A stretch of DNA of 64,000 nt from Deinococcales bacterium (GTDB lineage Bacteria > Deinococcota > Deinococci > Deinococcales > JAAFIG01), in contig JAYWGM010000056.1 in assembly GCA_043778225.1 (NCBI GenBank), positions 1 to 64,000 of the forward strand, written 5' to 3'. How positions within the stretch are numbered: the stretch's first letter is position 1; every line of letters starts with the position of its first letter. The translations under genes were made by a program, and so were the position numbers. Shown piece by piece: positions 58 through 64,000 of this stretch. The notes beneath the pieces are model-generated. The model did no database searches. It was not told the DNA's origin and worked only from the letters and a program-made list of their open reading frames with translations.

Positions 58-106
58 TTGACAAATTTGTGGCTCGAGAGTATATCTATTAACGATACAT
101 CGTTGA
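58..106 (+). promoter_or_regulatory. Promoter and probable PadR auto-operator
   Basis: TTGACA (58-63), 17 nt, TATATC (81-86); palindrome AACGAT-AC-ATCGTT (91-104) just upstream of the AAGGAG RBS. Confidence 0.55.
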
Positions 107-116
107 AAGGAGTAGT

Positions 117-494
117 ATGCCCCCGAAGCCCACCGAAGGACCACCACTCACACCCGCCGCCTTTCATATTCTGCTGTCGCTGGCTGAAAACGAGCAACAT
201 GGGTACGGCATTATTAAAACCGTTCTCGAGCGCTCAAATGGCGAAGTCAATTTAGGACCCGGTACGCTGTATGGGAACCTCAAGCGCTTTATAGACCTCG
301 CTTGGATTGAAGAACTCGAGGCTCGCCCAGCCAAAGATTTGGATGACGAACGGCGCAGGTATTACCGCCTGACCAAACACGGTGTCCGGATTGCCGAACT
401 CGAGGCAGAACGCCTAGAAAGCCTAGTGCGCTTGGCTCGAGCCGCTAAATTGTTGCCCAACAGCGTTATGACCATCAAACGGGAGGTTGCATGA
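117..494 (+). CDS. PadR family transcriptional regulator
   Basis: HGYGI...LGPGTLYGNLKR...RRRYYRLT motifs; AAGGAG RBS. Confidence 0.92.
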   Translation: MPPKPTEGPPLTPAAFHILLSLAENEQHGYGIIKTVLERSNGEVNLGPGTLYGNLKRFIDLAWIEELEARPAKDLDDERRRYYRLTKHGVRIAELEAERLESLVRLARAAKLLPNSVMTIKREVA

Positions 495-1291
495 AACTCG
501 AGACTTGGATGTACAAGCAAGCCCTAGAACTGTACCCAAAGGTGTACCGCGAACAATTTGGGCAGCCCATGCTCGAGACATACACGGATGGTTTGAGAGC
601 CGCAAAACTCGAGGGCGAAGTCTGGGCGTTTCATCGCCATACGACTGTTGATATGGTTAAAGGAATTTTTAAGGCAACCAAAGAGATTGAAAAACCAGAT
701 GTATTGGCTCGAGTAGCAGCGGTTTTGGCTTTTATCTATGCTTGCTATTGTTTGGTTATAAACCCACTTTTTGGCGCAAATCCACAATTTAGGTTAAAAC
801 TGAGTTTTGAGGTTATTGCACCTGTGATTCATATTATTGGGTTTATGCTTGCATTTCGTCGCCCATTTTCGGAATGGATTTACTTTGCTTTGATGTCTGT
901 GCTTGGAGCAATACGGATTTTGCTCGACTTCTATTTGGGGACTTATGACTGGTCTTTTCAAAGATTCCAGCTACCCGACCTTGTTTATCAACTTTTTGTA
1001 GTTCGTGGCTGGCTAAGCTGGGGGATGTTTTTGACACTGCCACTTTTTATTTTATTGCGCTCCAAAGAGCAAAAACGTTTAAGTAAACTATTTTGGTTTT
1101 TTCTGATGAACGCATTTGTTTGGCTTGGTTATTTGTTCGTACCAGCAAGACAAGTTCCTCGTTCGGAATTCCATATTCATGATGTTTTATTTTGGACAGC
1201 AAGTGTTACAGGAGCAATCTACTTTTTGATGTTTGCCCTAAAATTCTGGCAACGAACTCGTCCTGAACCTCGAGTTATCAAAACAACTTAA
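491..1291 (+). CDS. Membrane protein of the PadR-associated type
   Basis: N-terminal LYPxxYRxxFGxxM motif typical of PadR partner genes; about 6 hydrophobic segments; ATGA overlap with padR. Confidence 0.7.
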   Translation: MKLETWMYKQALELYPKVYREQFGQPMLETYTDGLRAAKLEGEVWAFHRHTTVDMVKGIFKATKEIEKPDVLARVAAVLAFIYACYCLVINPLFGANPQFRLKLSFEVIAPVIHIIGFMLAFRRPFSEWIYFALMSVLGAIRILLDFYLGTYDWSFQRFQLPDLVYQLFVVRGWLSWGMFLTLPLFILLRSKEQKRLSKLFWFFLMNAFVWLGYLFVPARQVPRSEFHIHDVLFWTASVTGAIYFLMFALKFWQRTRPEPRVIKTT

Positions 1292-1304
1292 ATTTGTATT
1301 CTCG

Positions 1305-1343
1305 AGAAAACTGTCAACTTATGGGTTGACAGTTTTCTTTTTT
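1305..1343 (+). terminator. Intrinsic terminator whose 3' arm also supplies the -35 box of the hicAB promoter
   Basis: AGAAAACTGTCAAC/GTTGACAGTTTTCT 14-bp stem plus T-run; TTGACA 1326-31 and TACAAT 1348-53. Confidence 0.8.
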
Positions 1344-1365
1344 CTTGTACAATCATGGTGTCAAT

Positions 1366-1572
1366 ATGAAAGTCCGAATCCTCAAGCAACTCCTAAAAGA
1401 CGCGGGATTCTCATTCAAGCGCCAAGGTAAAGGCGACCACGAAATTTGGGGCAATGAGGAAGGAATTTCTTTTCCAGTAGATGGCAGTGATGGTATGGAA
1501 ATCCCAATGGGGACATTACGGACGTATCTGAAATTGGCTGGAATTAAACTCGAGCAAAAATCAAAGAATTAA
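1366..1572 (+). CDS. hicA: HicA family toxin
   Basis: LKDAGF..KRQGKGDHEIW...EIPMGTLRTYLKLAG. Confidence 0.88.
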   Translation: MKVRILKQLLKDAGFSFKRQGKGDHEIWGNEEGISFPVDGSDGMEIPMGTLRTYLKLAGIKLEQKSKN

Positions 1573-1582
1573 CGAGGAAATC

Positions 1583-2077
1583 ATGAAAAAGTATTTGGCG
1601 GTTACAGCAAAAGTTATCGGAGCAGAAAATTATGTGGCTTGGTTCGCGGATGAAATTTTAGGCTTTGCAACCGCTAAGACTCGAAGTGAGGTGATTGCAA
1701 AATTGCCTGATTTATTAGCAGGTGCTTTTCTTGGAACATCAAAACGGGTTGAACCGCGCATAACATTACTCGAGGAAATAGACCCAGAAATACTTGAAGG
1801 CTCAGAACTTATAGAAACTTGTTGGGTAGAAGCTCCTCCAATCAATCCAATGGCGCAAGCCATTTTTGAGGCGATGTGCAAAAATAATATCAATTCAAAT
1901 CAATTGGCAAAACGTATGGGGATTAGCCGAGCCGCCATTTCTAAGCTAACAGACCCGACCAGAACCGCGCCGTATCAACTTGATACCTTAGAGCGAATCG
2001 CTGCCGCACTTGACATGGAACTCGAGCTTCCTAAGTTTTTGCCAAGAACATCATCTCCAAGTTTTGCCACCACGTAA
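1583..2077 (+). CDS. hicB: HicB-like antitoxin with C-terminal XRE HTH
   Basis: Follows hicA; C-terminal QLAKRMGISRAAISKL...LDTLERIAAAL HTH. Confidence 0.75.
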   Translation: MKKYLAVTAKVIGAENYVAWFADEILGFATAKTRSEVIAKLPDLLAGAFLGTSKRVEPRITLLEEIDPEILEGSELIETCWVEAPPINPMAQAIFEAMCKNNINSNQLAKRMGISRAAISKLTDPTRTAPYQLDTLERIAAALDMELELPKFLPRTSSPSFATT

Positions 2078-2120
2078 AGATTGTCAATCCCGAACCCTCG
2101 GACGTATGCTCCTTATTCTT

Positions 2121-3665
2121 GTGGAAGGTCTTTTTATCGCTAAACAACTCGAGGAAATAGGTGCGCGGCTTCCCGCCCGTAACCTAGGTTGGGTTTTCCC
2201 CAACGAAACCACCGCCGCCGTACTGCTCGAGGATGCAAACCGTAAAATTCTAAATCTGGTTCTCGAGTATAAAGCCCCAAGCCCAACGCTTTACATCAGC
2301 CCATCCAAACTCGAGGGTGATGCCCGAAATGCCTTTCAACGGGCGCTCGAGGGTAAAGTTAAAGGCGATTTACTCAGTGTGCAGCAATTAAAACTTGACC
2401 GAGTAATCATGCTCGAGTTTGGTCTTGGGACTGGTTTTGTGGGTTCGGAGGCTGCCAGATTACTGTTTGAATTAACGGGGCGCAATGCCAATTTACTGAT
2501 TCTTGAGGCAATAGGGGAGAGCCAGTTTTCTGGCAAAATCCAAATCGCGGCTCGAGAAATTACCAATGCCCGTAATCGTTTCCGTACCATTCGTTCTGGT
2601 GGTTTGTACAGTCCGCCACCGCCGTATCAAAAACTCGACCCGCGAATCAGTACCGACCAAGAACTTAGAGCGGCACTCGAGGGAAAACCAATTTCTGCAT
2701 GGAGTAAAGTTGTCGATGGACTCGGCACGACGCTTTTGCGTGAACTCGAGCATCGGTTTGACCAAACTGGCGATGTGGTGCTGGCGCTGCGCGATTTGGT
2801 GGCAAACCCGAGTTTATCATCCGAAGAATCCTTGTCCGACCAAGCCCGAGACCGCACAAGGCTCGAGCGACTGACCGAATTGCGTAAAACCTTGCGTGAA
2901 CCGCTCGAGAAACGCCTAAAATTGCTCGAGAAACAGTCTGAGGACTTGCGCCGAGCCGAAGAAAATGCACTGGCTGCGCTCGAGTGGCGTGAGTCTGCCG
3001 AGACGTTGCTGGCATACAGCCGTGATGTACCAAGTGGTGCAAATTCCGTGACGCTGCCTAGTTTGTATGGCGAAGGCACAGTCAGTATTGCCCTCGAGCC
3101 AGATTTAAGTGCTGCCCAAAATGCCAATAAACTCTTTGCCAAAGCCAAACGCCGCGAGGAAGTCTTAGAAAAACTCCTGACTCGAGAACCAGAACGGGCT
3201 GCTCAAAGGTTGCAAATCGCCACATTGCTGGCAGAAGTCCAAACGGCAACTGACACGCGCTTACGGAGCTTACTTGGGGTTCACAGCCCAAATCCCGAAG
3301 CGCCCCCAACTGTTGGAATGCGCTACCGAACCTCGAACGGTCTCGAGGTGTTGGTTGGGCGCAACTCCAAGGAAAACGAGCTTCTGACCCACCGAATTGC
3401 CAAAAGCGCCGATATTTGGTTTCACGTGCAGGGTTATCCGGGGTCGCACGTGATTCTGCGTGGGGCAAACAAAGAAATCCCGTTTGCTGATATTCTCGAG
3501 GCTGCCAGTATTGCCGCGTGGTTTTCTAAAGCCCGTGGCAGCACCAGCATTGCCGTGGATTACTTATTTGCCAAGCACGTCTGGCGACCTAAGGGCGCGA
3601 GGGCTGGGGCGGTACATTTTTCGCATCAGAAAACCGTAGTTGTTGAACCTGTATTGCCATCGTAG
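2121..3665 (+). CDS. rqcH: Rqc2/NFACT (fibronectin-binding protein A-like) ribosome quality control protein
   Basis: DRVI.LEF, ELTGRNANL, VGRNSKENELL, WFHVQGYPGSHV motifs; GTG start inferred at 2121. Confidence 0.88.
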   Translation: MEGLFIAKQLEEIGARLPARNLGWVFPNETTAAVLLEDANRKILNLVLEYKAPSPTLYISPSKLEGDARNAFQRALEGKVKGDLLSVQQLKLDRVIMLEFGLGTGFVGSEAARLLFELTGRNANLLILEAIGESQFSGKIQIAAREITNARNRFRTIRSGGLYSPPPPYQKLDPRISTDQELRAALEGKPISAWSKVVDGLGTTLLRELEHRFDQTGDVVLALRDLVANPSLSSEESLSDQARDRTRLERLTELRKTLREPLEKRLKLLEKQSEDLRRAEENALAALEWRESAETLLAYSRDVPSGANSVTLPSLYGEGTVSIALEPDLSAAQNANKLFAKAKRREEVLEKLLTREPERAAQRLQIATLLAEVQTATDTRLRSLLGVHSPNPEAPPTVGMRYRTSNGLEVLVGRNSKENELLTHRIAKSADIWFHVQGYPGSHVILRGANKEIPFADILEAASIAAWFSKARGSTSIAVDYLFAKHVWRPKGARAGAVHFSHQKTVVVEPVLPS

Positions 3666-3674
3666 ACTCGAGAT

Positions 3675-4124
3675 GTGAATGCAAAGTATGTCCATACGAA
3701 TTTAGTAGCTGCCAATTGGCGTGTTCTTGCCAATTTTTACGAAACAGTTTTTGGTTGTGTGCCAGTGCCGCCAGAACGGGATTACGCAGGGGTGCAATTT
3801 GATGCACTTGCCAATCTAAATGGTGCAAGGCAACGCGGTATGCACTTGCGTTTGCCGGGCTTTACCCAAGATGCGCCAACCTTAGAAATTTTCCAGTACG
3901 AACCGAGTCTCGAGAAACCCGAAACCAAAGTCAATCGGCAAGGCTTTGGGCATATTGCTTTTGCTGTAGACGATGTGCAAGCTGCCTTAGAACTTGTCCT
4001 CGAGCATGGTGGCGGTCAAGTTGGTGAGCTTGTGACCCTGACTCGAGCCGACGGGCAGCAAGTTATATTGGTTTATGCCACTGACCCAGAAGGAAATGTG
4101 ATTGAATTACAACACTGGTCGTGA
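3675..4124 (+). CDS. VOC/glyoxalase family protein
   Basis: HTNL, HIAFAVDD, DPEGNVIEL; leaderless TAGACT-N6-GTG. Confidence 0.88.
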   Translation: MNAKYVHTNLVAANWRVLANFYETVFGCVPVPPERDYAGVQFDALANLNGARQRGMHLRLPGFTQDAPTLEIFQYEPSLEKPETKVNRQGFGHIAFAVDDVQAALELVLEHGGGQVGELVTLTRADGQQVILVYATDPEGNVIELQHWS

Positions 4125-4143
4125 TTTCTGCTACACTCAAAGT

Positions 4144-4398
4144 ATGATTCTTCGTAGTTTTTCAATTCGTGGTTACATTGATGCGGCGTTGCAGTTAGCA
4201 CATTATGAAACTGATGAAAACGGGATGGTTGTGGCAGAAGTACCAAATGCACCGGGATTTTTTTCAGAAGGTAAGAGTGTCGAAGAAGCGCGTCGTGAAC
4301 TGGCTGATGCAATAGAGGGAAATATAGTTTTGGCTTTGCAATTAAATCGTGAAATTCCTGTGCTTCCGGGCGTTCATATTGAGGAGCAGGTTGCCTAA
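4144..4398 (+). CDS. hicB: HicB family antitoxin
   Basis: VAEVPNAPGFFSEGKSVEEARRELADA; leaderless TACACT-N6-ATG. Confidence 0.85.
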   Translation: MILRSFSIRGYIDAALQLAHYETDENGMVVAEVPNAPGFFSEGKSVEEARRELADAIEGNIVLALQLNREIPVLPGVHIEEQVA

Positions 4399-4615
4399 GG
4401 TTTCGCCACTTAAAAGCCTCGAGATTATTCAAAAGTTGCGAACTTTGGGTTATGAAGGACCATTTGCGGGTGGGCGACATATGCACATGGTTCATCCAGA
4501 TAAGCACTTTCCAATAATCCCAATTCCAATGCACCCAGGCGATATTGGGGTTGGGTTAATTCGTAAAATTATCCGAGATGTTGGAATTACGCCGCTTCAA
4601 TGGCTAGATTTATAG
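4391..4615 (+). CDS. hicA: HicA family toxin (hicBA order)
   Basis: GGRHMHM...IPMH..DIGVGLIRKIIRDVG; TTG start after GAGGAG. Confidence 0.85.
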   Translation: MPKVSPLKSLEIIQKLRTLGYEGPFAGGRHMHMVHPDKHFPIIPIPMHPGDIGVGLIRKIIRDVGITPLQWLDL

Positions 4616-4616
4616 T

Positions 4617-5588: not shown

Positions 5589-5655
5589 AACTCGAGCCTA
5601 ACACAGTCACGAACAAGCGCTTGTACGGTTTAGGCAATTTGGACTGTGTGTAATT

Positions 5656-6042
5656 TTAGTTTTGGCAGCAATGTTTGCATTTGCCATGAAACTCTATTTT
5701 AGAACTCGAGACTTCAAACCCCTGCAAGGCTTTGGCTGCCAATGGGGTTAAATCGGGTAAAGCTATCAGCACATCAAAGACCTGTCCACAGGTATCGCAA
5801 ACAAAATGGGCATGACTCTCGAGCCGAGCATCGTAGCGGGTTGGCATTCCTGGCTGCTGGATTTGCAGCAAATGACCCTCATCCACCAGTGCCTCGAGTG
5901 AACGATAAACTGTACCGAGCGAAATACTGGGTACAATACGGCGTACTGCATCATAAATATGGGCTGCGTCGGGGTGCTGGCTGCTGTGTTGCACCACCTC
6001 GAGAACAGCTTGGCGTTGACGAGTAAAGCGGACAATTGCCAT
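5656..6042 (-). CDS. Fur family transcriptional repressor (PerR-like)
   Basis: TRQRQAVL, HPDA, ISLGTVYRSL, HAHFVCDTCG, CKHC. Confidence 0.9.
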   Translation of the reverse strand: MAIVRFTRQRQAVLEVVQHSSQHPDAAHIYDAVRRIVPSISLGTVYRSLEALVDEGHLLQIQQPGMPTRYDARLESHAHFVCDTCGQVFDVLIALPDLTPLAAKALQGFEVSSSKIEFHGKCKHCCQN

Positions 6043-11802: not shown

Positions 11803-13551
11803 TTAGTTGATGCTGCTCGAGGCTCGAGCCAGTTCAATTGGCACGGCGGGTGGCTCGATTCGCTCGAGAACCGTAAAGCCAAGGCGTTCGGCTTCTTCAA
11901 CAAAATAATTGATGTTTTCGGTTTTGGTGGTTTCGCCTAAACTGACCCGTTCAAAGGATTTATTGGCAGCAATAATCAGGGTTTCGGCAAGACAAGCTGG
12001 TACATTGCCTTTACCAAAGTCGAGTTTGCCATCTGCCCAGCCATTGGGGGCGGTCATGCCACCGGGCGGTTGGACGACCCCACCGGGAATCAGGCGCACA
12101 CCCGGTACAGTCAGCACACTTTCGTCAACATCGGCTGGGCGACCTTCGTCATAAATCCAAGCCCCGGGCTTGACATCCTTGGCAAAAACCACGGGGTTTG
12201 GGTCGGAAGTGGCGGTAAAAATCAGGTCGGCTTCTAAGCAATCGTGTGGCTCGAGGCTCGAGACAAACTTGGTTTTTGGATAGGCTTTCTCGAGCGTGGC
12301 GCGGCTTTTGTCAAGGCGGGTTAAATCGCGCCCAATTAAAATGACCTTGCCGACTTCGGGCGCAAGCATCCGCGCCATGCCAAAAGCGACCACCCCATTT
12401 GCGCCAACCACTGCCGCCGTCAGGTGCTTTAAGTCCTGCCCTTTGTTGCGCCAATGTTCCAAAATTTGCGGAATCGCGGCGCGGATGCTGCCAGCCGTGT
12501 ATGCCCCGCCATTGGTGACATGAATTTCTGGTACGGCGGCTTGAATCTCGAGTCCTTTTTTGCCAACTGTTCCCCAAAATGCACCCAGCCCGTAAACACT
12601 TGCGCCCAATTCTCGAGCCAAGCGTGCGCCTTGAATGGCACGCTTAACTGCCAGTTCGGGTTCGTTCTTAAAAACCTGTGGCAACAACGGACCAGTTAAT
12701 AAAATACAACGAATTTCCTTGCCATCGCTGGTGTACATTCCACGCAGTTCGCCAATTTTGAAGGGGCGAACTTGTTTACCAAGCCACTCGAGTTGTTTTT
12801 CAGAAATGATTTTATGGTCGTATAAGGGTTTTAGCCAAGCAAAGCGGTCAGACTTAAACATATACTGCGGCGCTAACGGGTGAATAATAAAAGCTGCAAT
12901 CACTTGGTCATCACGCTCGCCAGCCACATGATGGACTTCGCCAACTCGAGGCTCAGTTTGCTCGAGAATTCTGCCGATGTTTTCCTTAAAGCGCCACGCG
13001 GCGGCTACCAATAAACCCAGCACTGCCCAACGAGCGCCAAGTTCGGATGGCGAAAGTTGCATAATCAGCAGCAACGCCACCAAACCACTGAGCGTCCCAA
13101 CCGCCACATAGCGAGTCCAGCCCAGAACGGCGGCAAAAACAATCGCGGGAATGGCAGAAATCCAAAAAGGCATCTCGGCAAAAATCGCTAAACCCGCCAT
13201 CATCCCCAGTAAATAAACATTGCCTCGCCCACGCATTGGGTAATACTTGGGGAATAAAAACAACGGCGGATACTGATGCCCAACAAATCCCGCAAAAGCT
13301 GCGATAAAAGCCAGTTCGTTGCCTTCAAATGGAACAACCAGCGCCAGTACGACTGCACCTTTGAGGAAATCCAAGGCAAATGAAACAACCATTGTTTCGC
13401 CACCCAGTACCCGCAGCGCATTCTCAAAACCAATGTTATAAGCGTTGGCTCGCATTGGCTCGAGACCACGGTATTTGGCATACCAATAACCAAGCGGCAA
13501 AGCCCCAACAGCATAGGCAAGCAGCAGCGTCAAAAGAACATCTATTTGCAT
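11803..13551 (-). CDS. plsY: Glycerol-3-phosphate acyltransferase PlsY fused to an acyl-ACP-reductase-like NAD(P)-binding domain
   Basis: N-terminal NIGFENALR, DFLKG, GHQYP membrane domain; C-terminal AFIIHPL, GLGAF, VTNG..YT, VVGANG, ACLAET. Confidence 0.8.
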   Translation of the reverse strand: MQIDVLLTLLLAYAVGALPLGYWYAKYRGLEPMRANAYNIGFENALRVLGGETMVVSFALDFLKGAVVLALVVPFEGNELAFIAAFAGFVGHQYPPLFLFPKYYPMRGRGNVYLLGMMAGLAIFAEMPFWISAIPAIVFAAVLGWTRYVAVGTLSGLVALLLIMQLSPSELGARWAVLGLLVAAAWRFKENIGRILEQTEPRVGEVHHVAGERDDQVIAAFIIHPLAPQYMFKSDRFAWLKPLYDHKIISEKQLEWLGKQVRPFKIGELRGMYTSDGKEIRCILLTGPLLPQVFKNEPELAVKRAIQGARLARELGASVYGLGAFWGTVGKKGLEIQAAVPEIHVTNGGAYTAGSIRAAIPQILEHWRNKGQDLKHLTAAVVGANGVVAFGMARMLAPEVGKVILIGRDLTRLDKSRATLEKAYPKTKFVSSLEPHDCLEADLIFTATSDPNPVVFAKDVKPGAWIYDEGRPADVDESVLTVPGVRLIPGGVVQPPGGMTAPNGWADGKLDFGKGNVPACLAETLIIAANKSFERVSLGETTKTENINYFVEEAERLGFTVLERIEPPAVPIELARASSSIN

Positions 13552-17223: not shown

Positions 17224-17234
17224 GATTTAATTTT

Positions 17235-17340
17235 CTCGAGCCACAAAAATCGGTTCTCGAGTTACAAAATCGGTTCGGTTCTCGAGTTACAAATCCCATT
17301 CGGTTCTCGAGTTACAAAATCGGTTCGGTTCTCGAGGTAC
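17235..17340. repeat. Tandem ~25-bp array, each unit carrying CTCGAG
   Basis: CTCGAG at 17235, 17256, 17281, 17306 and 17331; unit CGGTTCTCGAGTTACAAAATCGGTT. Confidence 0.92.
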
Positions 17341-17349
17341 AATGTCGGT

Positions 17350-20728: not shown

Positions 20729-21717
20729 TAAGCTGGAACTCGAGTTGGTTTTCTAAATTCAATATCCTCGGGTTCGCCACCAGCTTCTCGCATTTGTAAA
20801 TTTGGGTTCTGAGCGCGTAAAAATTCGATAATCCCCCAGACCAAATCATCTGGTGTGCTGGCAGCACTGGTAATCCCCACAGCTTTGACACCCTCGAGCC
20901 AATCGGCTTTTATATCGGCGGCACTGTCCACACGGTATGCCTCGGGAGTCAGTTCTTCTGCCAACTCAACCAAGCGCATTCCGTTAGAAGATGTCAGACT
21001 CGAGACCACTAAGAACAAATCCACCTGTGGGGCAATAACTTTGACGGCAGCTTGACGGTTCTTGGTGGCATAGCAAAGGTCGCTTCTCGAGGGGATGGTT
21101 AGGTTTGGGAAGCGTCTTTTGAGAATATCCACGGTTTTATCGGTGTCGTCCACGCTTAGGGTGGTTTGGGTTAGCACAATGCACTTATCAGGGTCTGGTA
21201 CTAGCACGGTATGTGGGTCTTGCATTTTAGAATCGGCTTTGCGGTTGCCAACAACGTTGACCAGAATTGTGTCTTCTGGAGCTTCGCCAAAAGTTCCAAT
21301 GATTTCTTGGTGCTGGCTCGAGTCGCCGATTAAGAGAATGCTGTATCCCATACTTGCATAACGCTTAGATTCAGAATGCACTTTAGTCACCAGTGGACAA
21401 GTCGCATCCAAAGTTGTCAGACCGCGTTTATTGGCTTCCTCGCGCACTTTGGGCGAAATCCCATGAGCGCTAAAAACCACAGTTTGCCCTTGCCCCTGCA
21501 TCCCCTCGAGTTCGCTAAGACTTTCCACAAAACGCACACTGTGTTCTGCCTCGAGACGCTGCACCACCGTTTGATTATGGACAATCGCGTGATAGGCGAC
21601 AATATCGCCCTCACCGCTTATTTTGTTCTGTTCGGCAGCTTCTTTCAAGGCATCTATTGCCATGACCACACCGGCACAGTACCCACGCGGACGAGCCAGA
21701 ATTACAGTCTCTATCAT
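20725..21717 (-). CDS. ispH: 4-hydroxy-3-methylbut-2-enyl diphosphate reductase
   Basis: [34 protein letters not shown]; leaderless start 21717. Confidence 0.95.
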
Positions 21718-21721
21718 GGGT

Positions 21722-22876
21722 TTAGGATAACGCGCCAACTGGGGGCAAGGTGTCTCGAGCCACATTCGCCAAAAATGCTTGAACTTGGGCGGTCAAACGC
21801 GCTGTCTCGAGCAAAAACGCATCATGACCATGAGGGCTGCTGAGTTCCCAGTATTGACCGTTTTGGACAGTTTCGGCAATTTCTCGAGCCTCGGCTGGCA
21901 AGTACAGCAAATCGCTCGAGATGCCAATACTTAACAATGGCACAGCAATCTGCTCGAGTTGGCTAGGGGAGATGTCGAATTTATCCATCGCTTTGGTAAT
22001 AGAAATATAGCAGTTGGCATCAAAGCGCTCGAGTAAACGCTCGCCTTGATGCTCGAGGTACGTTTCCATCGCAAAGCGGCTTGGCTCGGTTGGACTGGCA
22101 CGGCGACCTTGGGTGAGACCAAAAGATTCTGGACTGCGAAAAAACAGGGTTGTGATGGCTCGAGCTAACGCTAAGCCCTGTGGTTGGCGGCTGTATTTAC
22201 CCGCCTTAAAATCTGGGTCGTTTTGAATCGCCATTCGCGCCAAATGGTTAAACGTAATGCCCCAAGCACTATGGCGGGCTGGCGCACCAATAATCACGGC
22301 TGCCCCAATCCGTTCTGGGAAAGCCCGTACCCATTCGAGCGCCTGCATTCCGCCCATGCTGCCGCCAATCACGGCTTCGATGCGTTGCACTCCAAGATGC
22401 TCGAGCAGTGCGGCTTGAACTTTTACCATGTCTGGAATAGTGATGTCCGGGAACTGATTGCCATAAGTGCGGTTGGTATTAGGATTGACACTGCTTGCCC
22501 CAGTGCTGCCATAGCAACCGCCCAGCACATTGGCACAAACAATAAAATTCTGGTCGGTGTCGAGCATTCGCCCAGCCCCCAAGGCTTCGGACCACCATGA
22601 AGCCACGCTGCTCGAGCCAGTTAGGGCATGGCAAACCAGTACAGCGTTGTCTTTGCTGGCGTTGAGTTGCCCATAGGTGCTGTAAGCCACCCGCACCATT
22701 TTCAGTTCGCCGCCTAACTCGAGTTTAAGCGGTTCATGTACAAAAAGCGTGGTGTGGCGCACATCGAGGTCAGAAGGTTTTGGCTCAGGGAACAAAACCC
22801 GAACTTCAAAGTCGCCAAGTCGTTCAATTTCAAAATTTTGTTCTGGCTTAAAAGAAACGGTCATGATGCTATCCAT
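21722..22876 (-). CDS. metX: Homoserine O-acetyltransferase
   Basis: CHALTG, GGSMGG, HGHDAFL; start could be 22864. Confidence 0.93.
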
Positions 22877-23124
22877 TCGCTACGAAAATCAAAGGCACAA
22901 TACTCCAGAATCAGGTTTTCGATTTCCGACTGCAAGGCTTTTTTAAGGCTTTGATTTGAACTCAGTGCCAAGGCGCGTTGCAGGTTCTCGAGTTGCTGAT
23001 GCCAGGCTTGGTTTTCTACAGCGCACTCGAGTTTGCCACGTGGAAAACGCCGCTGCTCGAGACCAGTTAAATTTTGAGTCAGCCGACGGCGTGAACCACA
23101 AGTTGGACAATCATCCTCGAGCAT
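22861..23124 (-). CDS. Hypothetical protein with CPTC motif and coiled-coil tail
   Basis: ATG 2 nt after the metY stop; ORF fills the metY-metX gap exactly. Confidence 0.5.
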   Translation of the reverse strand: MLEDDCPTCGSRRRLTQNLTGLEQRRFPRGKLECAVENQAWHQQLENLQRALALSSNQSLKKALQSEIENLILEYCAFDFRSEWIAS

Positions 23125-23126
23125 TT

Positions 23127-24533
<1,407 letters not shown>

Positions 24534-35000: not shown

Positions 35001-37222
35001 CAAATTACAATGGTCAATTTGGAGCAGATTTACCACTGGATGGTACAAAACGAGCCTTGCGTTCAAATGGCGGAAGTGGCTTTGCTTGGATTACAACCAC
35101 CGAACAATACTCGGTTGGGATGCAATGGAATGGTGCAGCTTGGGCAACAGGTAACTGGTTTCATAACTGGGCGGACAACGGCGGTACGGGCGATAGTCGA
35201 AACTGGGAATATGTACCTGTTCTTAATAGCATGGTTTCGTGTGATATAGACAATGAATTAACCGTTTGCATACCTCCAGAACGAACCCAACTGATTATTC
35301 ATGGAGTTGGCACAAGTGGCAACCGCACAGGAAAATTACACTACCGCCCCGAAGCCTTTGCAATTCCGACAGGAGAAATTGCCGTTGCGGTAGCCGTTGG
35401 TCAAGAAAGTATATTGCTGCTGACAGAAACTGGTGTTTACCGCCGTGGGGTACTGGGTATTTCACCAACCCAACCATCTTGCGGATGCTGGGAACGGGTC
35501 AGCAACATTACTGGAACACCTGTAGAAATAGCAGCTACAAAAGCGTGGTACATCATCAAAACCACAGATGGCGCATACCGAAATACCAACGGAAATTCGG
35601 GATTCATGCCAATGAATGCTGTAAACCCAGATGCAACTTTTGTGGTCGAACCACCTAGCGTTAATTTACTTCAACGTGTGATGAGTGTTGCCCAAATAAG
35701 TTTAGCGGGATTTAGCAACAACGAATTTTACGTTGCCTCGCAAGACTCGAGTGTTGAAACCGAAATTGGAAATTGGATCAATGGCAAAAGAGAACTGCGC
35801 CTTCACTGTACCAAATCAGGCGTGAGTACCAACGTGATTATCACCCATAAAATCTTCCCGAATATCACAAAAGCCATACCTGTAACCTGCACAGGCAATC
35901 AAAATCCACGAATTGTTCGTTTTTACGAACGCAATAACAACATAAACCCTAAGCCGTGGGACAGCCTAAAACTACAATGGCAAATTGAAGAACCCGAAGG
36001 TCAATCCATGACTTGTAAACTTGACTTGGATGGTAATGGAACTTGGGATCATACTCAAAGTAATTGCAATGACAGTCTGGATTACTCCCATGTTTGGAAC
36101 AACACACAATCAGGAGCGCAAAACATTAAATTGCGAGTTGAAGACACCTATGGCGGGGCAGCAGAAGTTTATCTGGGTTTCACAGTTCAATCCACCAATA
36201 AAGCCCCTGTAATCTCGAGTTTCACTGTTACCCCCTCGAGTGGTACAGCGCCAATAACCGTAACCTATAACTGGTCTGTCTCCGACCCAGACAACGACCC
36301 AACAACTTGTCAGTTAGATACCAATGGCGATGGCACATATGAGTATTCTTACCCCTGCTCGAGCCGTAATTCGCAAACGCACACGTTTAACAATAATGGC
36401 AGTTACACCTCGAGAATCCGCGTGACAGATGGGCGCGGCGGGGAATTCAGTGCTTCTCGAGTGGTGAGTTTATCAGAGGCTATAGTCCCTCAGCCATTAA
36501 ACGTGATTTTTGATGCGTCTGGTTTATCTGGACTTATTTCAATAAATGTACAAACATCAGATCAATCTGCAACGTGCATACTTTTTATCGCAGTACCGTA
36601 CCAAAAAAGAATAGTTCCATGCAATACTTCTGATTACATAATTGAAGTTGACGCAAGATCGTATGACTTAGCGCTTAGTATTTATAATAGTACATCAAGT
36701 AAAATAGTGGTTAAGAACGTTAATGTCACAACCTCTCAGCAGGAAGAATTCTCGGCAACTCAAAATATGCCGCTTGTCAATCTAGGCGTTCCAGAGAATA
36801 TAGACTTAAACAAACTTTCAATCTGCTTATCGAAAAGCTTTTTTCTTGAACTTATAGAATCTTTGCTCTTAGTTCAAGAAATAAAAACAGGACGTTCGTA
36901 TGATTTTCAAAATTACTCTTCACAAATCTTAGCTGCGGCAGCAGAAAGTCCATCTGCGCTTGATCAAGCCTATTTGGATATTATCAAAGAAATAGGCTTC
37001 GATTTTGCTGTTTCAGAAACCAAACTCAAAATCCTTGATTTACGAACTGGTGCCGCTAAATTAGCCGCCGGAAAGCTATTGAATTATAATACATTCACTA
37101 AATGGGGAAGAAACGCATTTAGATCAGTCGGTCCAACGCTACGTGTGGGTGCTGGTAAAATTTTTATTGGAATTACGGTAGTAAAAGTTTCATTTGAAGC
37201 TGGAAGATGCTACGCATCTTAA
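32054..37222 (+). CDS. Giant surface lipoprotein: 8 Ig-like repeats, RCC1-like region, 2 PKD-like domains, divergent C-terminus
   Basis: Lipobox LVAC; 93-aa repeats VTWEIVSGGG (279-bp period at 32771, 33050, 33329); AWGANYNGQFG; DLDGNG and DTNGDG motifs. Confidence 0.85.
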   Translation: MNKWFIGIGLSLALVACPAVPTIESVKIKSAFNTVAATETTNLAIEVKGSGAFDARVDWSIVPSLGSVTAQSETQAIYTAPLVSSDTNIVIRATSKLDPSKFGETTIQIKAPTITSLTATPSKTTLESEETTSISAKLEGTGAFNTDVLWSVVSGGGSLSSGTGNPVNYTSPKVGVDTDVVLQATAVGDNSKKQNVSLKVLTAKIITGITLEATPRSIPSATGTSNITATVNGTGAILNAVTWEIVSGGGNLINPTDTNVTYTAPTVSVDTIVTIKATSKANPSQSATITLSVVIPPVVSGINLTATPNSIVATTGVSTISSTIIGSGSIQNAVTWEIVSGGGTLSNATDTSVTFTAPNVTVETIVTIRATSKTDSSKTATTTITVTIPTVVSGITLSATARTIASGTGSSTISAVITGSGTFQNAVTWEIASGGGTLSNSTDTSVTYTAPSIVQDTIATLKATSKTDLSKTDTISLIVIAPTVVNSVQVTSTPSIIKSNATTTLSAVISGTGNPNPNAKWEIVSGGGALSSVSGASVTYAPAVVTTDTNVVIKATSSDDASKSASKTVVVEPIPTITGISVSMPFTTVQANGSIALGASITGYGNPDLSVKWSVVGNQGTLTNTTGAATTLNAPNVTAQTKIQIKAESVQDSSKSTLTEITINPKPPIEVITTPASVSVNATQAVAISAVVNYAQNASVAWTSSIGILTPNGNSAIWKAPNVLVDTTATITATSIEDSSKKTTISVNIKAAVIEVYALPLHPAYNDAGFNFGTGVSPASIAVAYGIHFHLAARANGESIGGTWAVGNAGIVQLMSTNTTNGSANVARFVGRGIGQSSTVTFTAPGGQQRQIQANIGAIEPKRLPTACANGDGGYVAIRPDGRYVISGNLNGLGLPNISGVVSETILGSATSRTLRGCITGINTITLLTTDPSVSYTSGEFNLTGSNLQALTETRHCPILSVQQKYYTGHLVCQDRTGLAWGANYNGQFGADLPLDGTKRALRSNGGSGFAWITTTEQYSVGMQWNGAAWATGNWFHNWADNGGTGDSRNWEYVPVLNSMVSCDIDNELTVCIPPERTQLIIHGVGTSGNRTGKLHYRPEAFAIPTGEIAVAVAVGQESILLLTETGVYRRGVLGISPTQPSCGCWERVSNITGTPVEIAATKAWYIIKTTDGAYRNTNGNSGFMPMNAVNPDATFVVEPPSVNLLQRVMSVAQISLAGFSNNEFYVASQDSSVETEIGNWINGKRELRLHCTKSGVSTNVIITHKIFPNITKAIPVTCTGNQNPRIVRFYERNNNINPKPWDSLKLQWQIEEPEGQSMTCKLDLDGNGTWDHTQSNCNDSLDYSHVWNNTQSGAQNIKLRVEDTYGGAAEVYLGFTVQSTNKAPVISSFTVTPSSGTAPITVTYNWSVSDPDNDPTTCQLDTNGDGTYEYSYPCSSRNSQTHTFNNNGSYTSRIRVTDGRGGEFSASRVVSLSEAIVPQPLNVIFDASGLSGLISINVQTSDQSATCILFIAVPYQKRIVPCNTSDYIIEVDARSYDLALSIYNSTSSKIVVKNVNVTTSQQEEFSATQNMPLVNLGVPENIDLNKLSICLSKSFFLELIESLLLVQEIKTGRSYDFQNYSSQILAAAAESPSALDQAYLDIIKEIGFDFAVSETKLKILDLRTGAAKLAAGKLLNYNTFTKWGRNAFRSVGPTLRVGAGKIFIGITVVKVSFEAGRCYAS

Positions 37223-54988: not shown

Positions 54989-54998
54989 GATGCGCCAG

Positions 54999-56192
54999 AT
55001 GAATACTGCTCCTTTACCCGTAATCGTGTTATCTGGCTTTCTTGGCAGTGGCAAAACCACGCTCCTCAATCATATTTTGGCAAACCGTGAAGGCAAACGG
55101 GTGGCAGTGATTGTCAATGATATGTCCGAAGTCAACATAGACGCGCAAATTGTGCAAAACGAAGCCCATTTATCCAGAACCGAAGAAAAGCTAATCGAAA
55201 TGAGTAACGGCTGTATCTGCTGCACCCTGCGCGAAGACCTGCTACTCGAGGTTGGAAAACTGGCTAAGGAAGGGCGTTTTGATTATGTGATTATCGAATC
55301 CACGGGTATTTCCGAGCCGCTACCGGTTGCCGAAACCTTTACTTTTGAAGATGAAAACGGACAGAGCCTAAACAGCATTGCGCGGCTTGATACGATGGTC
55401 ACAGTCGTGGATGGGTACAACTGGCTGCGCGACTGGGATGCTGCCCAGAGCCTACGCGAACGCGGCGAAACGGCAGGCGAAGGCGATGAGCGCACCGTTA
55501 CTGATTTACTGGTCGAGCAAGTTGAATTTGCCAATGTGCTGCTCTTAAACAAAACCGATTTGTGTACGGTTGAAGAAATCTCGAGACTCGAGGGGATACT
55601 GCATCATCTCAATCCAGTGGCTAAAATTATTCACTCGAGCTTTGGCAAAGTTGCCTTAGATAAGGTGCTGGGAACTGGTTTATTTGATTTTGACCAAGCC
55701 AGTCAAAATGCAGGTTGGTTGCGTGAAGCAAGGGGCGAACACACCCCAGAAACCGAGGAGTATGGCATCTCGAGTTTTGTGTACCGTTCGCGTAAACCAT
55801 TTCACCCCGAACGTTTTCATAAAGCCTTGCAAGGAAATTTTGTAGGCGTGGTACGTTCCAAAGGGCATTTTTGGCTGGCTTCACGCATGGAATACGCGGG
55901 TTCATGGGCGCAAGCTGGGCGCGTAGCACGGTTTGATATGGCGGGTTTTTGGTGGGCAGCCGTGGATAAATCGCAACGCTCCGACGATCCAGAATTCTTG
56001 GGGTATCTCGAGGATATTTGGGCAGAACTTTATGGCGACCGCCGCCAAGAAATTGTCTTTATTGGCGTAAAAATGGACAAAGCCCTGATTGAAAACCAGT
56101 TAAATGCTGCGCTGCTGACCGATTCGGAAATGCTCGAGCCTGAAAAATGGGAATTTTACGCTGACCCATTTCCAATTTGGGGCAACGAATGA
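54999..56192 (+). CDS. COG0523 (CobW/ZigA-like) zinc metallochaperone GTPase
   Basis: [29 protein letters not shown], CobW C-terminal RSKG.FW...QEIVFIG. Confidence 0.93.
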
Positions 56193-62403: not shown

Positions 62404-62412
62404 AGAGCTAGT

Positions 62413-63162
62413 TTAACTCAAGTTCTCGACCAAATCACGTTTTTTAAGGGCGATATAGGCTTCCCAAACCTGTTCTCGAGCCAAACCTAAATTGAGATGC
62501 ACTTCCCAAAGGCTGACTGCCCCATTGAGAACATCGTAAACCTGAAACTCGAGGTCGGTGAGTTCAACATTTTTCTTGGCAAAAAGTCCAAGCAAACCTT
62601 TGGTTTTGGGCTCTTTCTTGCGTAATCGTAAGGCTTTTAAGCGCTCCGGGGTGCATGGAGATTTTTCTGAAGACAACAGCCGTTTTTGCATCAATTGCTT
62701 GATGATGCTGTTGAGCGTAGCTGTATTGAGTTCTGTATTGATCAATAAATCTTCAAAAGTAGTCCCGTTGGCATGGTTCAAGACTCGAGCCTCAAATTCG
62801 TTCAAATCAAGGCTGGTGTGTTTTTCGGCATAAAAATAGCCATCGAGTTTGGTTGGGACTTCAAACTTTTTTTCCTCGATTGTGCTGCCGCTTTGCAGTT
62901 TATTGCGGTCAGCTTCGGTAATGCTTTTCAGTGGGGCTGGAATCCCCTCGACAAAATCAAGGCTGTAATTGTGCCAAGTCAGGGCTTCTTGCACAGCTGG
63001 AAAACCAAATGTCCAGCCATGTTGGGCATGAACCAGTGTTCCGTACTCGAGGAATAAATTGATTTCTGTGCCATCGCGTTTTTGTAAACGCAAACGACCA
63101 GTTCGACGTTTGGCTTGCTCCTGTGCTAACTCGGTCATCAGGCTAGAATTTTGATTGTTCAT
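62413..63162 (-). CDS. DUF4388-like domain protein
   Basis: RRTGRLRL...LFLEYGTLVHAQ..G..A. Confidence 0.7.
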   Translation of the reverse strand: MNNQNSSLMTELAQEQAKRRTGRLRLQKRDGTEINLFLEYGTLVHAQHGWTFGFPAVQEALTWHNYSLDFVEGIPAPLKSITEADRNKLQSGSTIEEKKFEVPTKLDGYFYAEKHTSLDLNEFEARVLNHANGTTFEDLLINTELNTATLNSIIKQLMQKRLLSSEKSPCTPERLKALRLRKKEPKTKGLLGLFAKKNVELTDLEFQVYDVLNGAVSLWEVHLNLGLAREQVWEAYIALKKRDLVENLS

Positions 63163-63302
63163 GATTACTTAGGATTATAGCCTAAAGGTTGCGGTATTAA
63201 CGACTGGGGATTTGTCACTCGAGACCAAGCCAACGTTAAAATGATAAGCCATGGCAGTATTACTTTAGGAATGGTTTTCTGGACATATTTTTTATAGCTG
63301 CG

Positions 63303-63362
63303 GATTTGTACTGCAATACCGAACTGAAAGATTTGTACTGCAATACCGAACCGATTTTGTAC
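63303..63362. repeat. Direct repeat GATTTGTACTGCAATACCGAAC x2 plus a partial third copy
   Basis: Copies at 63303 and 63330 (27-bp period). Confidence 0.85.
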
Positions 63363-63475
63363 CTCGAGACACAAGTTTTAGGGCAAATTTTAAGCTAAAC
63401 TAGACAAGTCCCAAAATTAACTCGAGTGACCGCCGTATGCCGGAGGCTCGAAAATTTATTCTAGGAGCGTGGCAG

Positions 63476-64000
63476 ATGTTTCCAGCAAACTTCGAGTACA
63501 TTCGTTCTCACTCAACCGACGAGGCTTTTACCGCCCTGCAAGAACATGGCAGTGAGGCTCGAGTTCTGGCGGGTGGGCAGAGTTTAATTCCAGCCATGCG
63601 CTACCGATTGGCGCGTCCAGCCGTTTTGGTGGACATTAACCCGATTAAAGAATTGTCGTATTTGCACGAAAAAGATGGTTTTTTGCTGATTGGCGCAACC
63701 ACCCGAGATGCGGCGCTCGAGTTCAATCAAAATATCTTGGCACGCTACAGCCTGATAACGGCAGTCTCGAGGGTGGTTGCCGACCCGATTGTGCGCCAAA
63801 TGGGAACAGTCGTGGGCAGCATTTGCCACAACGACCCCTCGGGCGATTGGACTGCTACCGCGCTGGCATCTCGAGCCACGATGATTGTGCGTGGCGCAAA
63901 TGGTACTCGAGAAATATCCATAGATGATTTTTTGCTCGATTCATTCACCACCGCCATTGAAGAAGGTGAAATGGCAATCGAAGTGCGAATTCCAATTCCC
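63476..64000 (+). CDS. Xanthine/CO dehydrogenase family FAD-binding subunit (CoxM-like), truncated by window end
   Basis: MFPANFEY, VLAGGQSLIPAMRYRLARP..LVDIN, VRQMGTVVGSICHNDPSGD; AGGAG RBS. Confidence 0.9.
   Translation, partial: MFPANFEYIRSHSTDEAFTALQEHGSEARVLAGGQSLIPAMRYRLARPAVLVDINPIKELSYLHEKDGFLLIGATTRDAALEFNQNILARYSLITAVSRVVADPIVRQMGTVVGSICHNDPSGDWTATALASRATMIVRGANGTREISIDDFLLDSFTTAIEEGEMAIEVRIPIP

Follow-up and report, generated by a model that had tools for sequence, protein, structure and literature searches.

The window analysed here, a stretch of 64,000 bases from a Deinococcales genome (G000 below), carries 54 open reading frames (ORFs) of at least 100 amino acids and 394 copies of the six-base palindrome CTCGAG, the first starting at position 73 and the last occupying 63906–63911. 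By comparison, 100 dinucleotide-preserving shuffles yielded a mean of 7.5 copies (sd 2.8, maximum 14). The preliminary description of this DNA had reported 27 sites in the first 3 kb and 23 in 20730–23165, and both counts were reproduced exactly (Table 1). The sites at 3667 and 5591, which it placed in putative promoter spacers, both fall in short spacers. The site at 24508 indeed occupies the apex of a G+C-rich terminator-like hairpin (−16.5 kcal/mol, z −1.95), after which the minus strand continues into a run of T. ORFs contain 347 of the sites (198, 76 and 73 in the three codon phases) and the other 47 do not lie wholly within a called ORF, giving densities of 6.04 per kb in ORFs versus 7.22 per kb outside. 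The tandem repeat on the plus strand is located directly upstream of an ORF starting at 17350, and the MetY-like gene, whose motifs point to an O-acetylhomoserine sulfhydrylase-like protein, served for an orthologue test.

Table 1. Features of the window that bear on the distribution of CTCGAG.
Feature	Position	Strand	Remark
CTCGAG over the whole window, 394 sites	73..63911		Direct count; 32–57 per 8-kb bin, eight bins
Dense patch, 27 sites	73..2984		Direct count
Dense patch, 23 sites	20739..23162		Direct count
Site present only in G000 among 3 aligned sister-clade relatives	2979..2984	+	CTTCTT or GTCACT in the relatives
Site in 9-base spacer	3667..3672		Between two plus-strand ORFs (stop 3665, GTG 3675)
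Site upstream of ORF	5591..5596		3 bases from the start codon (ATG) of minus-strand ORF 4617–5588
Site pair, 7 bases apart (CTCGAG-N-CTCGAG)	11816..11828		Second pair at 12250–12262
25-base tandem repeat, about 4 copies	17233..17349	+	Five CTCGAG (17235–17336)
MetY-like gene, 7 sites	23127..24479	-	Used for orthologue test
Terminator-like hairpin	24492..24528	-	CTCGAG (24508–24513) at tip, then minus-strand T run
Longest site-free stretch, 1315 bases	34431..35745		GC 0.458; inside 1734-aa ORF 32018–37222
Site present only in G000	55769..55774	+	CAGCAG in five relatives, flanks otherwise conserved

The excess extends over the whole 4.03-Mb genome, which holds 24,877 copies (one per 162 bp, or 6,170 per Mb), 26.7 times the mononucleotide expectation. 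CTCGAG is the top hexamer, threefold ahead, and every one of the 107 contigs carries 4.0–10.6 copies per kb. The observed/expected ratio (O/E) of 1.16 under a maximal-order Markov model is not counter-evidence, since the conditioning 5-mers are themselves made of CTCGAG. In the uncultured family to which G000 belongs, all 19 genomes show 4.3–6.8 copies per kb at GC contents of 0.49–0.62, the trait being independent of GC. Density is similar in five genera of this family despite DNA differences of at least 30%, and amounts to 4.8–5.2 per kb in a sister clade within our comparison (G001, G003, G004 and G005). Among 151 genomes of the order, the sister families have fewer copies and one of them, f3, avoids the word; the range within Deinococcales thus runs from 0.01–0.27 per kb under avoidance up to 6.8 per kb. 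Literature searches returned no paper on over-representation of CTCGAG in the family of G000.

Codon usage had been judged insufficient to account for the sites, and the genome-wide comparison agrees. Density in G000 is 6.20 per kb in ORFs and 6.11 per kb outside, with 2531 copies in spacers against 79 expected (32-fold). Ten synonymous shuffles, which keep the protein sequence and the codon usage of each gene, gave 1673, 388 and 321 sites in codon phases 0, 1 and 2 (largest total 2460), compared with 13,221, 4514 and 4667 observed, an excess of 7.9-, 11.6- and 14.5-fold, respectively, and 9-fold overall. The excess therefore neither disappears under a codon-based null nor is limited to the Leu-Glu frame. 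The proteome bears its mark as well: Leu-Glu (LE) has an O/E of 2.32, against 0.96 for EL, and CTCGAG encodes 69% of the 19,147 LE dipeptides, while the MetY-like protein contains 8 LE and 77 orthologues from other taxa average 4.19. Together with the lineage-specific gains reported below, these values support the proposal that the word is kept or created even at the cost of amino-acid changes.

A by-product of codon usage, of a Leu-Glu-rich proteome or of base composition would fit the location of half of the sites in the Leu-Glu frame, and Thermus thermophilus pTT27 shows such a pattern, 42 of its 45 copies lying in that frame as a result of the favoured codons CTC and GAG. Run through the same script, however, this Thermus control showed that codon usage by itself produces no excess (42 versus 85 expected) and a spacer density of 0.22 per kb. 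An artefact of assembly or library is contradicted by the occurrence of the trait in 19 separate assemblies, the 18 other family genomes including a single 5.09-Mb contig (G013), and by independent contigs from two public runs (probably of the source samples), which match window positions 1–20000 with no differences in long pieces. Given the synonymous shuffle, the spacer excess and the presence of the trait in 19 of 19 family genomes, explanations of these kinds keep practically no probability. CTCGAG is a genuine highly iterated palindrome across the family, resembling HIP1 (GCGATCGC) as the preliminary description had held: it occurs throughout the genome, in spacers as well as in every reading frame, far past what codon usage provides.

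The enrichment is specific to the exact word. O/E in G000 drops from 26.7 for CTCGAG to 0.81 at one mismatch (the 18 such words pooled genome-wide, with mononucleotide expectation), 0.74 at two and 0.96 at three, and the flanks of the sites are near random. The earlier impression that one-mismatch variants are common was not upheld, as the window contains 18 CTCGAA, 19 TTCGAG and 22 CTCGAT against about 15.6 for any hexamer. Genome-wide, CTTGAG (1.40 of expectation) and TTCGAG (1.39) are the commonest words at one mismatch. Inner transversions are rarest (CACGAG 0.29, CTAGAG 0.16, CTAG being rare genome-wide) and outer changes range from 0.84 to 1.39, a frequency that the inner transitions CTTGAG and CCCGAG (1.18) match; in HIP1, one-base deviations are biased toward outer positions (Elhai 2015, PMC4390886). 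This all-or-none recognition, like that of type II restriction-modification enzymes, points to a protein that contacts duplex DNA as a symmetric dimer.

Local exceptions were also observed. Low-GC islands of G000 hold 0–6 copies per 4 kb, which points to a dependence on residence in the genome, and tRNA genes contain 6 copies in 5286 bases compared with 32.6 at genome density. CTCGAG is absent from imported low-GC DNA, and tRNA genes resist it, a deficit indicating that constraint can override accumulation of the word. A search for 16S in G000 by a primer-like motif found nothing.

Comparison with relatives provided evidence for both retention and gain. Aligned CTCGAG sites are conserved at 56–69% in seven genomes of the same genus, versus 20–35% for other hexamers, and any two genomes within the genus disagree at roughly half of the sites. 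With outgroup-supported ancestors, 84 of 105 sites were retained on the G000 branch (control words 0.53), and 12 polarised gains were recorded against 0.56 expected from 179 words of the same composition. In the sister clade, retention was 0.55–0.65 versus 0.43–0.52 and strictly polarised gains numbered 0–1, while presence/absence parsimony assigned 12 gains to G000 and nine to the sister-clade stem. Ancestors defined as the consensus of at least three relatives had been dropped in favour of the outgroup-supported ones because one sister clade dominates that consensus. Within the window, the site at 55769 would represent, by frame reading, a serine codon switch from AGC to TCG in ORF 54990–56192; the site at 2979 may be either a gain in G000 or a loss in the sister clade and, if a gain, would have replaced Leu-Leu by Leu-Glu in ORF 2010–3665.

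These gains have to be read against the state of the alignments. LE positions have repeatedly changed from TTAGAA-type codons to CTCGAG and back, and synonymous sites are near saturation between these genomes, so fixation bias and mutation bias cannot be told apart from the excess of gains. Near saturation, arrival rates tend to the stationary 27-fold enrichment; we therefore do not claim multi-base writing in one event, although gains from words at two to four mismatches ran at about 20 times the control rate and individual examples are striking. Nor do we distinguish a 'hot' G000 from a 'cold' sister clade (12 versus 0–1 gains), because parsimony gives 12 versus 9 and homoplasy makes the polarity unsafe. 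What the data show is a force directed at the exact DNA word irrespective of what it encodes; it preserves copies above background and makes new ones in this lineage, in every frame of genes and in spacers, at some expense to protein sequence.

A relic, written in the family ancestor and now only decaying, is very improbable. Pairwise conservation of about 0.5–0.6 is near what we estimate for neutral retention of ancestral sites along one branch, and the sister clade, with its lower density, slightly raised retention and scarcity of strictly polarised gains, would suit such decay. Against it stand the 12 polarised gains of G000, the nine that parsimony places on the sister-clade stem, and the similar density of five divergent genera, which pure decay cannot hold.

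CTCGAG is the site of XhoI and PaeR7I, and TCGA that of TaqI; genomes are generally known to avoid restriction sites rather than accumulate them. In Escherichia coli, Dcm/Vsr very-short-patch repair raises CCWGG and lowers CTWGG, an example of a palindromic word that methylation-linked repair can enrich, but the enrichment there is slight and that of CTCGAG is 27-fold. A related explanation assumes marking of the word by a methyltransferase specific for CTCGAG or TCGA, after which mismatch or very-short-patch repair resolves near-matches toward it, methylation-directed biased repair being the model of Elhai for HIP1 (PMC4390886). The all-or-none recognition is what a type II methyltransferase would show, G000 is rich in methylases (6 C5, 8 Eco57I-type, 6 N6_N4 and 4 D12 matches), and cyanobacterial HIP words accompany matching methylases (Elhai 2015, PMC4390886). 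A hot-spring methylome preprint likewise has CTCGAG and TCGA among its methylated motifs, with the taxon named for part of them; we draw nothing from it, as the available passages do not give the carrier taxon of its 'Group 2' methylated CTCGAG.

The coupling to methylation envisaged in the preliminary description nevertheless found no support at the sequence level, where neither a methylase orthogroup common to the six genomes compared, nor Vsr in G000, nor an XhoI-family nuclease in the 19 family genomes was detected. Searches of PF00145, PF07669, PF01555 and PF02086 returned no orthogroup common to G000 and one genome from each of five genera; this comparison is based on sequence rather than specificity, in genomes 87–94% complete, and covers other methylase folds in part. 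G010 (91% complete) has no PF00145 (C5) match and the single-contig G013 no PF01555 (N6_N4) match. TaqI_C-type methylases (candidate C65) occur in only 6 of the 19 family genomes and a small methylase, C80, in 3 of 31 genomes; both were dropped as sporadic, as were the C5, gamma, beta and D12 groups, and no family-wide candidate emerged in these searches for a CTCGAG or TCGA methyltransferase lacking its endonuclease. A scan for [DNS]PP[YFWH] yielded 48 ORFs, the 20 new ones comprising by Pfam a type ISP enzyme, HsdM, C80, a family-less 503-aa ORF and 16 unrelated proteins, and the NCBIfam names of the methylase candidates provided no specificity.

Signs of Dcm/Vsr-type repair were equally missing from the sequences searched. 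Vsr (PF03852) had no match in G000 among 18 candidates scored, C5 enzymes are not universal, and TTCGAG and CTTGAG, the deamination (T:G) substrates, are not depleted. XhoI-family nucleases (PF04555) matched 0 of 19 family genomes and 6 of 151 across the order; elsewhere in the order they occur with a PF01555 methylase partner, namely in five of the 23 f4 genomes and one of the 37 f2 genomes. The XhoI-linked methylase of the sister family is only 26% identical to its best relative in G000, in which no cognate pair of nuclease and methylase was found. A methylation step is possible but without support here, and we consider the repair explanation unlikely.

Similarly unlikely, in our judgement, is that the copies are kept, each by weak selection, as binding sites of an abundant dimeric protein that organises the chromosome through nucleoid compaction, segregation or looping. 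For HIP1, selection and a role in chromosome structure have been argued, with a periodic distribution of 10–90 kb along the chromosome (Xu, Lawrence and Durand 2018, PMC5861425). The palindromic form, the exact-word recognition, the equal density of genes and spacers and the conservation of sites above background would all suit such a protein, as would a footprint-like short-range repulsion between sites (pair correlation 0.47 at 7–18 bases and below 1 to about 65 bases). In contrast, each of about 25,000 sites would need a scaled advantage of about ln(27), or about 3.3, a value that selection on single sites would hardly attain, and about half of them differ between same-genus genomes. No periodicity of spacing, helical or other, was seen except 3 bases, and autocorrelation of the density per 1 kb in 27 contigs of at least 60 kb showed correlation at 1–2 kb only and no density period at 3–40 kb, by a method that differs from that of Xu et al. 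and on contigs too short for longer periods. Nor was a candidate protein found.

The reading we prefer, and hold tentatively, is that CTCGAG tags the lineage's own DNA in natural transformation, homologous recombination or both, and spreads by molecular drive. A reader protein would recognise the word on the lineage's own DNA, and DNA or alleles carrying it would be preferentially taken up or recombined; under such a preference the word would rise through molecular drive to an equilibrium with mutation and protein constraint, reached near 6 per kb. HIP1 itself has been proposed as an uptake sequence and raises transformation in Synechococcus, where the effect needed methylation. Genes for ComEC and DprA were found in G000, which is permissive for uptake, but matches also occur in 10–11 of 14 control genomes, so their presence says little.

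Own-DNA tags have long been known in the DUS of Neisseriaceae and the USS of Pasteurellaceae, asymmetric words of 9–12 bases at about 1 per kb with enriched near-matches. CTCGAG resembles them as a clade-specific, genome-wide word that affects proteins, is absent from foreign DNA and has weaker or variant forms in relatives; drive linked to transformation of the DUS/USS type would be an analogy. It differs in being a six-base palindrome at 6 per kb, enriched as the exact word only, without the graded near-matches of DUS and USS (0.81 and 0.74 at one and two mismatches). A tag needs no co-extensive methylase. Besides these differences from DUS and USS, several points speak against this reading: the HIP1 effect on transformation depends on methylation and no matching methylase was found here, Xu et al. 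favoured selection and chromosome structure for HIP1, the gains fit mutation bias as well as fixation bias, and a six-base word would set foreign DNA apart through density alone.

More generally, and with slightly less confidence, a methylation-independent system may read exact CTCGAG and drive it into the genome, either as an uptake or recombination tag or through a local word-writing enzyme. Its strength would be graded over most of Deinococcales, strongest here, weaker in three families and inverted in one, and it would constitute a second, independent origin of HIPs with a novel kind of reader protein.

Like HIP1 and the alternate HIPs of cyanobacteria, CTCGAG is a short G+C-containing palindrome that is over-represented genome-wide by more than an order of magnitude, lies in genes as well as in spacers, characterises a clade, is conserved between its genomes and is scarce in imported DNA. 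HIP1 is over-represented 15- to 300-fold at 300–2700 copies per Mb (Elhai 2015 Table 2, PMC4390886); CTCGAG, at 27-fold and 6,170 per Mb, is denser, has six bases instead of eight, and is a different word in another phylum. It also differs in that no co-extensive orphan methyltransferase was found in four Pfam families of six genomes from five genera, and no 3–40 kb periodicity in a simple test. The text of Elhai 2015 (PMC4390886) mentions neither CTCGAG nor Deinococcus.

With an independent and denser HIP from another phylum, what was a lone puzzle can now be approached by comparison. To our knowledge, HIP1 has lacked an explanation for some thirty years, and no case outside cyanobacteria was known. 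An explanation of HIPs must now work without enzymes of the DmtA/DmtC type, unless a methylase in this family has escaped recognition. The range from avoidance to 6.8 per kb within one order offers a natural gradient for phylogenetic profiling of the responsible gene. In these Deinococcales genomes, CTCGAG is a strong marker of native versus foreign DNA, and it biases codon, dipeptide and k-mer statistics, thereby affecting binning, gene calling and the detection of horizontal transfer in the family.

CTCGAG occurs 394 times in the window, against a mean of 7.5 and a maximum of 14 in 100 dinucleotide-preserving shuffles, with the outermost sites at 73 and 63906. The dense patches singled out in the preliminary description were exact on recount (27 sites in bases 1–3000 and 23 in 20730–23165), as was the placing of one site in a terminator loop, where CTCGAG forms the tip of a terminator-like hairpin. 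By our own ORF calls (54 of at least 100 aa), 347 sites lie within ORFs, with codon phases of 198/76/73, and 47 lie outside ORFs or cross ORF ends; ORFs carry 6.04 sites per kb and the remaining DNA 7.22.

Three further features of the window were recorded. A 25-base tandem repeat of about four copies (unit TCGGTTCTCGAGTTACAAAATCGGT), with CTCGAG in each copy, stands directly upstream of an ORF starting at 17350, and its units could be operator-like iterons. Short 8-base repeats of the AAGGTTAA type occur at two places, and contigs of two public runs link base 28–33 to 11756–11798 with different letters between, which suggests that a spacer element is repeated or that the population contains an alternative arrangement. 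One segment is 86% identical in DNA to G001, a genome of the same genus, other stretches shared with G001 being 72–81% identical; it is possibly a recombined or recently exchanged segment.

The window's own genome, G000 (4.03 Mb, 107 contigs, GC 0.487, 89% complete), carries 24,877 copies, or one in every 162 bases. Hexamers that overlap CTCGAG come next in abundance, and the top unrelated hexamer has 5,347 copies. Density is 4.0–10.6 per kb on every contig, and positions flanking the word approximate base composition. The enrichment is all-or-none, because observed/expected ratios are 26.7 (mononucleotide expectation) for perfect copies versus 0.81, 0.74 and 0.96 at one, two and three mismatches. 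The earlier impression that one-mismatch variants look common was thus not upheld, and window counts agree. Words with one and two mismatches fall short by roughly 3,000 and 30,000, comparable in order of magnitude to the surplus of perfect copies. Of the 64 hexamer palindromes, 34 fall below 0.1 of expectation, compared with 2.1% of hexamers that are not palindromic; GGCC, with 131 copies in 4 Mb, is at 0.01 of expectation, GATC stands at 0.13, and AAATTT, AGCGCT, CAATTG and TTGCAA are over-represented about twofold. Such extreme scarcity of palindromes other than CTCGAG suggests that many restriction systems have acted on this genome over a long time.

Low-GC islands (GC 0.32–0.44) are nearly free of the word, with 0–6 sites per 4 kb. 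The island on contig C40 carries a methylase gene (GC 0.32, zero CTCGAG) and a C5 methylase fragment. The tRNA genes, 68 by ARAGORN, contain 6 sites in 5,286 bases where genome density predicts 32.6; strong functional constraint can resist the force on CTCGAG. Four of the six site-bearing tRNA genes lie within 3 kb on contig C19, a cluster that may represent a tRNA array derived from a mobile element or phage. Neighbouring sites repel one another at short range, the pair correlation being 0.47 at 7–18 bases and below 1 to about 65 bases, then flat; the sole period in the spacing is 3 bases, and 1-kb-bin density in 27 contigs of at least 60 kb shows no autocorrelation at 3–40 kb. Pairs exactly 7 bases apart number 123, with any middle base, approximately the independent expectation; spacings of 8–14 are depleted 2–5-fold, and no pair has the 6-base spacing that would create the avoided GAGCTC.

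Locations of individual features (window positions unless a contig is named)
Location	Feature	Detail
1–33; 11720–11798	Short 8-base repeats	
3495	CTCGAG of G000 only, conserved flanks	CTCCAA -> CTCGAG
3667; 5591	CTCGAG in short spacers	Adjoining gene ends
11816–11828; 12250–12262	CTCGAG pairs	7-base spacing
17233–17349	25-base tandem repeat	
24508	CTCGAG at tip of terminator-like hairpin	
45993–53427	Segment shared with G001	G001:C450:100-7499
55769	CTCGAG of G000 only, conserved flanks	CAGCAG in five relatives
C19, about 9.9–12.8 kb	tRNA genes with CTCGAG	
C34:28000–33000	Low-GC island	
C40:7000–12000	Low-GC island	
C41:54000–60000	Low-GC island	
C44:58000–63000	Low-GC island	GC 0.32, zero CTCGAG
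C93:8000–15000	Low-GC island	
C89:21497–22123; 23686–24828	DprA gene; D12-class ORF	

The nearest named records are labelled 'MAG: Deinococcales bacterium' (MetY 83–84% identical in protein). We surveyed the order through 151 genomes, each from a different species, with families and genera coded and per-kb values based on rounded genome sizes. In the window's family (f1, five genera), all 18 genomes and G000 carry 4.3–6.8 CTCGAG per kb; sampled members range in GC from 0.49 to 0.62, and CTCGAG remains their commonest hexamer (observed/expected 12–23). Families f2, f4 and f5 (37, 23 and 36 genomes) have 0.1–3.4 per kb. Stretches of 6–80 kb from seven of their genomes have CTCGAG at 4–10 times the mononucleotide expectation, in excess of the synonymous shuffle for phases 1 and 2, and at about 2–2.6 per kb outside ORFs, by rough ORF calls. 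In view of this weaker excess across phases and spacers, f1 is the extreme of an order-wide gradient and not an isolated case; kin are non-independent, and no statistical claim is made across genomes. Family f2 prefers G before and C after the word, and GAGCTC is near zero in f1 and several f2 genomes. The 36 genomes of f3 hold 0.01–0.27 per kb, avoiding CTCGAG although none of them matches an XhoI-family nuclease.

The preliminary description had attributed the excess to a methylation-coupled system. G000 has 6 PF00145, 8 PF07669, 6 PF01555 and 4 PF02086 methyltransferase matches, and Vsr was not found in it. The same four families were inventoried in one genome per genus (G006, G012, G013, G010 and G011; 87–94% complete). 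All-versus-all comparison gave no group with members in all six genomes, a result to be read with the facts that specificity is unreadable from sequence, that non-orthologous enzymes could share one, that the genomes are incomplete and that methylase folds beyond the four families were covered in part. The best cross-genome pairs (59–80% identity) each join two genomes only, G010 has no C5 match and G013 no N6_N4 match. Of the 19 f1 genomes, 6 have TaqI_C-type enzymes, the architecture of M.TaqI and M.PaeR7I, and a small N6_N4-like enzyme is present in 3 of 31 genomes. XhoI-family nucleases occur in 6 of the 151 genomes (f4 5/23, f2 1/37) and in none of the 19 of f1; their convergent neighbour is a 340-aa PF01555 methylase whose closest relative in G000 is 26% identical. 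Methylation coupling thus found no backing in these searches, and methylation-directed repair by undetected enzymes appears unlikely. A second account, in which sites are selected for a chromosome-organising protein, we likewise regard with considerable doubt: with about 25,000 sites, selection on each is less plausible than a drive in which uptake, recombination or repair is biased.

Seven same-genus genomes (72–81% DNA identity) were projected onto the window. Aligned sites were identical in a relative in 56–69% of cases, versus 20–35% for all other hexamers. Pooling seven non-independent comparisons, 912 aligned sites divided as 572/77/107/109/40/7/0 at zero to six differing bases; the one-mismatch state accounts for 8%, versus about 34% for other hexamers. 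With G001, G003, G004 and G005 as sister clade and G002, G006 and G007 as outgroups, an ancestral hexamer was accepted only if common to a sister-clade member and an outgroup. The G000 branch retained 84 of 105 ancestral sites (0.80; 0.53 for 179 same-composition words) and gained 12 where these control words predict 0.56, from one, two, three and four mismatches in 4, 3, 4 and 1 cases. An alternative tie-break gave 86 of 107 retained and 10 gains; presence/absence parsimony assigned G000 12 gains with 19 losses and the sister-clade stem 9 gains with 25 losses. CTCGAG is therefore kept and made now, and that the sites are merely a relic is highly improbable given these gains. The tabulated site with CAGCAG in relatives appears, by our own reading of the frame, to be a serine codon switch. 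Neither the writing of several bases in one step nor a mutational force, as opposed to fixation bias, is claimed, since synonymous saturation and repeated Leu-Glu switching confound both. The sister clade has 4.8–5.2 sites per kb versus 5.9–6.4 in G000, G006 and G007, with retention only slightly raised and 0–1 strictly polarised gains; its drive may be weaker, an inference that homoplasy makes unsafe.

Among 3,531 ORFs of at least 100 aa, by our own calls, G000 has 22,402 sites (phases 0/1/2: 13,221/4,514/4,667), whereas synonymous-codon shuffling, which keeps protein and codon usage, gave 2,382 (1,673/388/321; maximum of ten shuffles 2,460) and codon-order shuffling 1,035. ORFs carry 6.20 sites per kb and the DNA outside them 6.11; spacers hold 2,531 sites, with 79 expected from their composition and 50–70 in first-order Markov simulations. 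Codon usage alone is insufficient, as first proposed, since all phases exceed the shuffle and spacers are equally dense; coding cannot account for the excess, and codon usage or artefact as its source has a negligible probability. Applied to 50 kb of the Thermus thermophilus HB8 plasmid pTT27, with its own annotation, the same script found 45 sites, of which 42 fall in the Leu-Glu phase, with 85 predicted by codon usage and 0.22 per kb in unannotated DNA; this is the pattern that codon usage alone yields. The suggested amino-acid cost was also upheld. Leu-Glu dipeptides stand at 2.32 times the amino-acid-frequency expectation (Glu-Leu 0.96), and CTCGAG encodes 69% of 19,147 Leu-Glu pairs. Of the 7 sites in the MetY-like gene of the window, 6 encode Leu-Glu, and at three of these 6 most of 77 other-taxon orthologues have Phe-Glu, Val-Glu or Phe-X. 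The protein has 8 Leu-Glu pairs versus a mean of 4.19 (sd 1.37) among those orthologues. The G000 proteome is bent toward the word.

In the literature searched, which left subscription journals outside its scope, no report of CTCGAG as a highly iterated palindrome was found, and, among the matches listed, no study related by title and abstract to its over-representation in genomes. The papers listed on highly iterated palindromes were all cyanobacterial by title or abstract; a search for the HIP1 palindrome outside cyanobacteria gave Synechococcus work only. Among the matches listed, those joining CTCGAG with Deinococc were mostly cloning-type by title, plus two methylome studies. Elhai's paper (PMC4390886) has neither CTCGAG nor Deinococcus in its main text.

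A continuing, word-specific, all-or-none force acts on duplex DNA in this genome independently of coding. Its action extends across the clade and varies with how long DNA has resided in the genome. That the palindrome is recognised exactly suggests a symmetric dimeric protein as precise as a restriction-modification enzyme. As the methylation-repair model, among the drives, gained no support from our searches, we tentatively commit to CTCGAG as a self-DNA tag that serves natural transformation or recombination, a reading that is possible although short of probable, guided by the natural competence for which the phylum is known and by recent HIP1 work. Against it, known uptake sequences are longer and asymmetric, while CTCGAG is a 6-base palindrome, and near-matches to known uptake sequences are enriched too. 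In the HIP1 work that favours the tag reading, HIP1 sites are reported to increase transformation in Synechococcus PCC 7002, and HIP1, whose abundance is reported to correlate with type IV secretion proteins, has been proposed to act as an uptake sequence; the transformation effect required methylation, which counts against a tag reading of CTCGAG. G000 has ComEC and also DprA, whose gene is located about 1.5 kb upstream of an ORF of 380 aa resembling D12-class methyltransferases; this ORF has no NCBIfam match, and no orthologue of it was found in five other genera. As a self-DNA tag, CTCGAG would be read during natural transformation or recombination.
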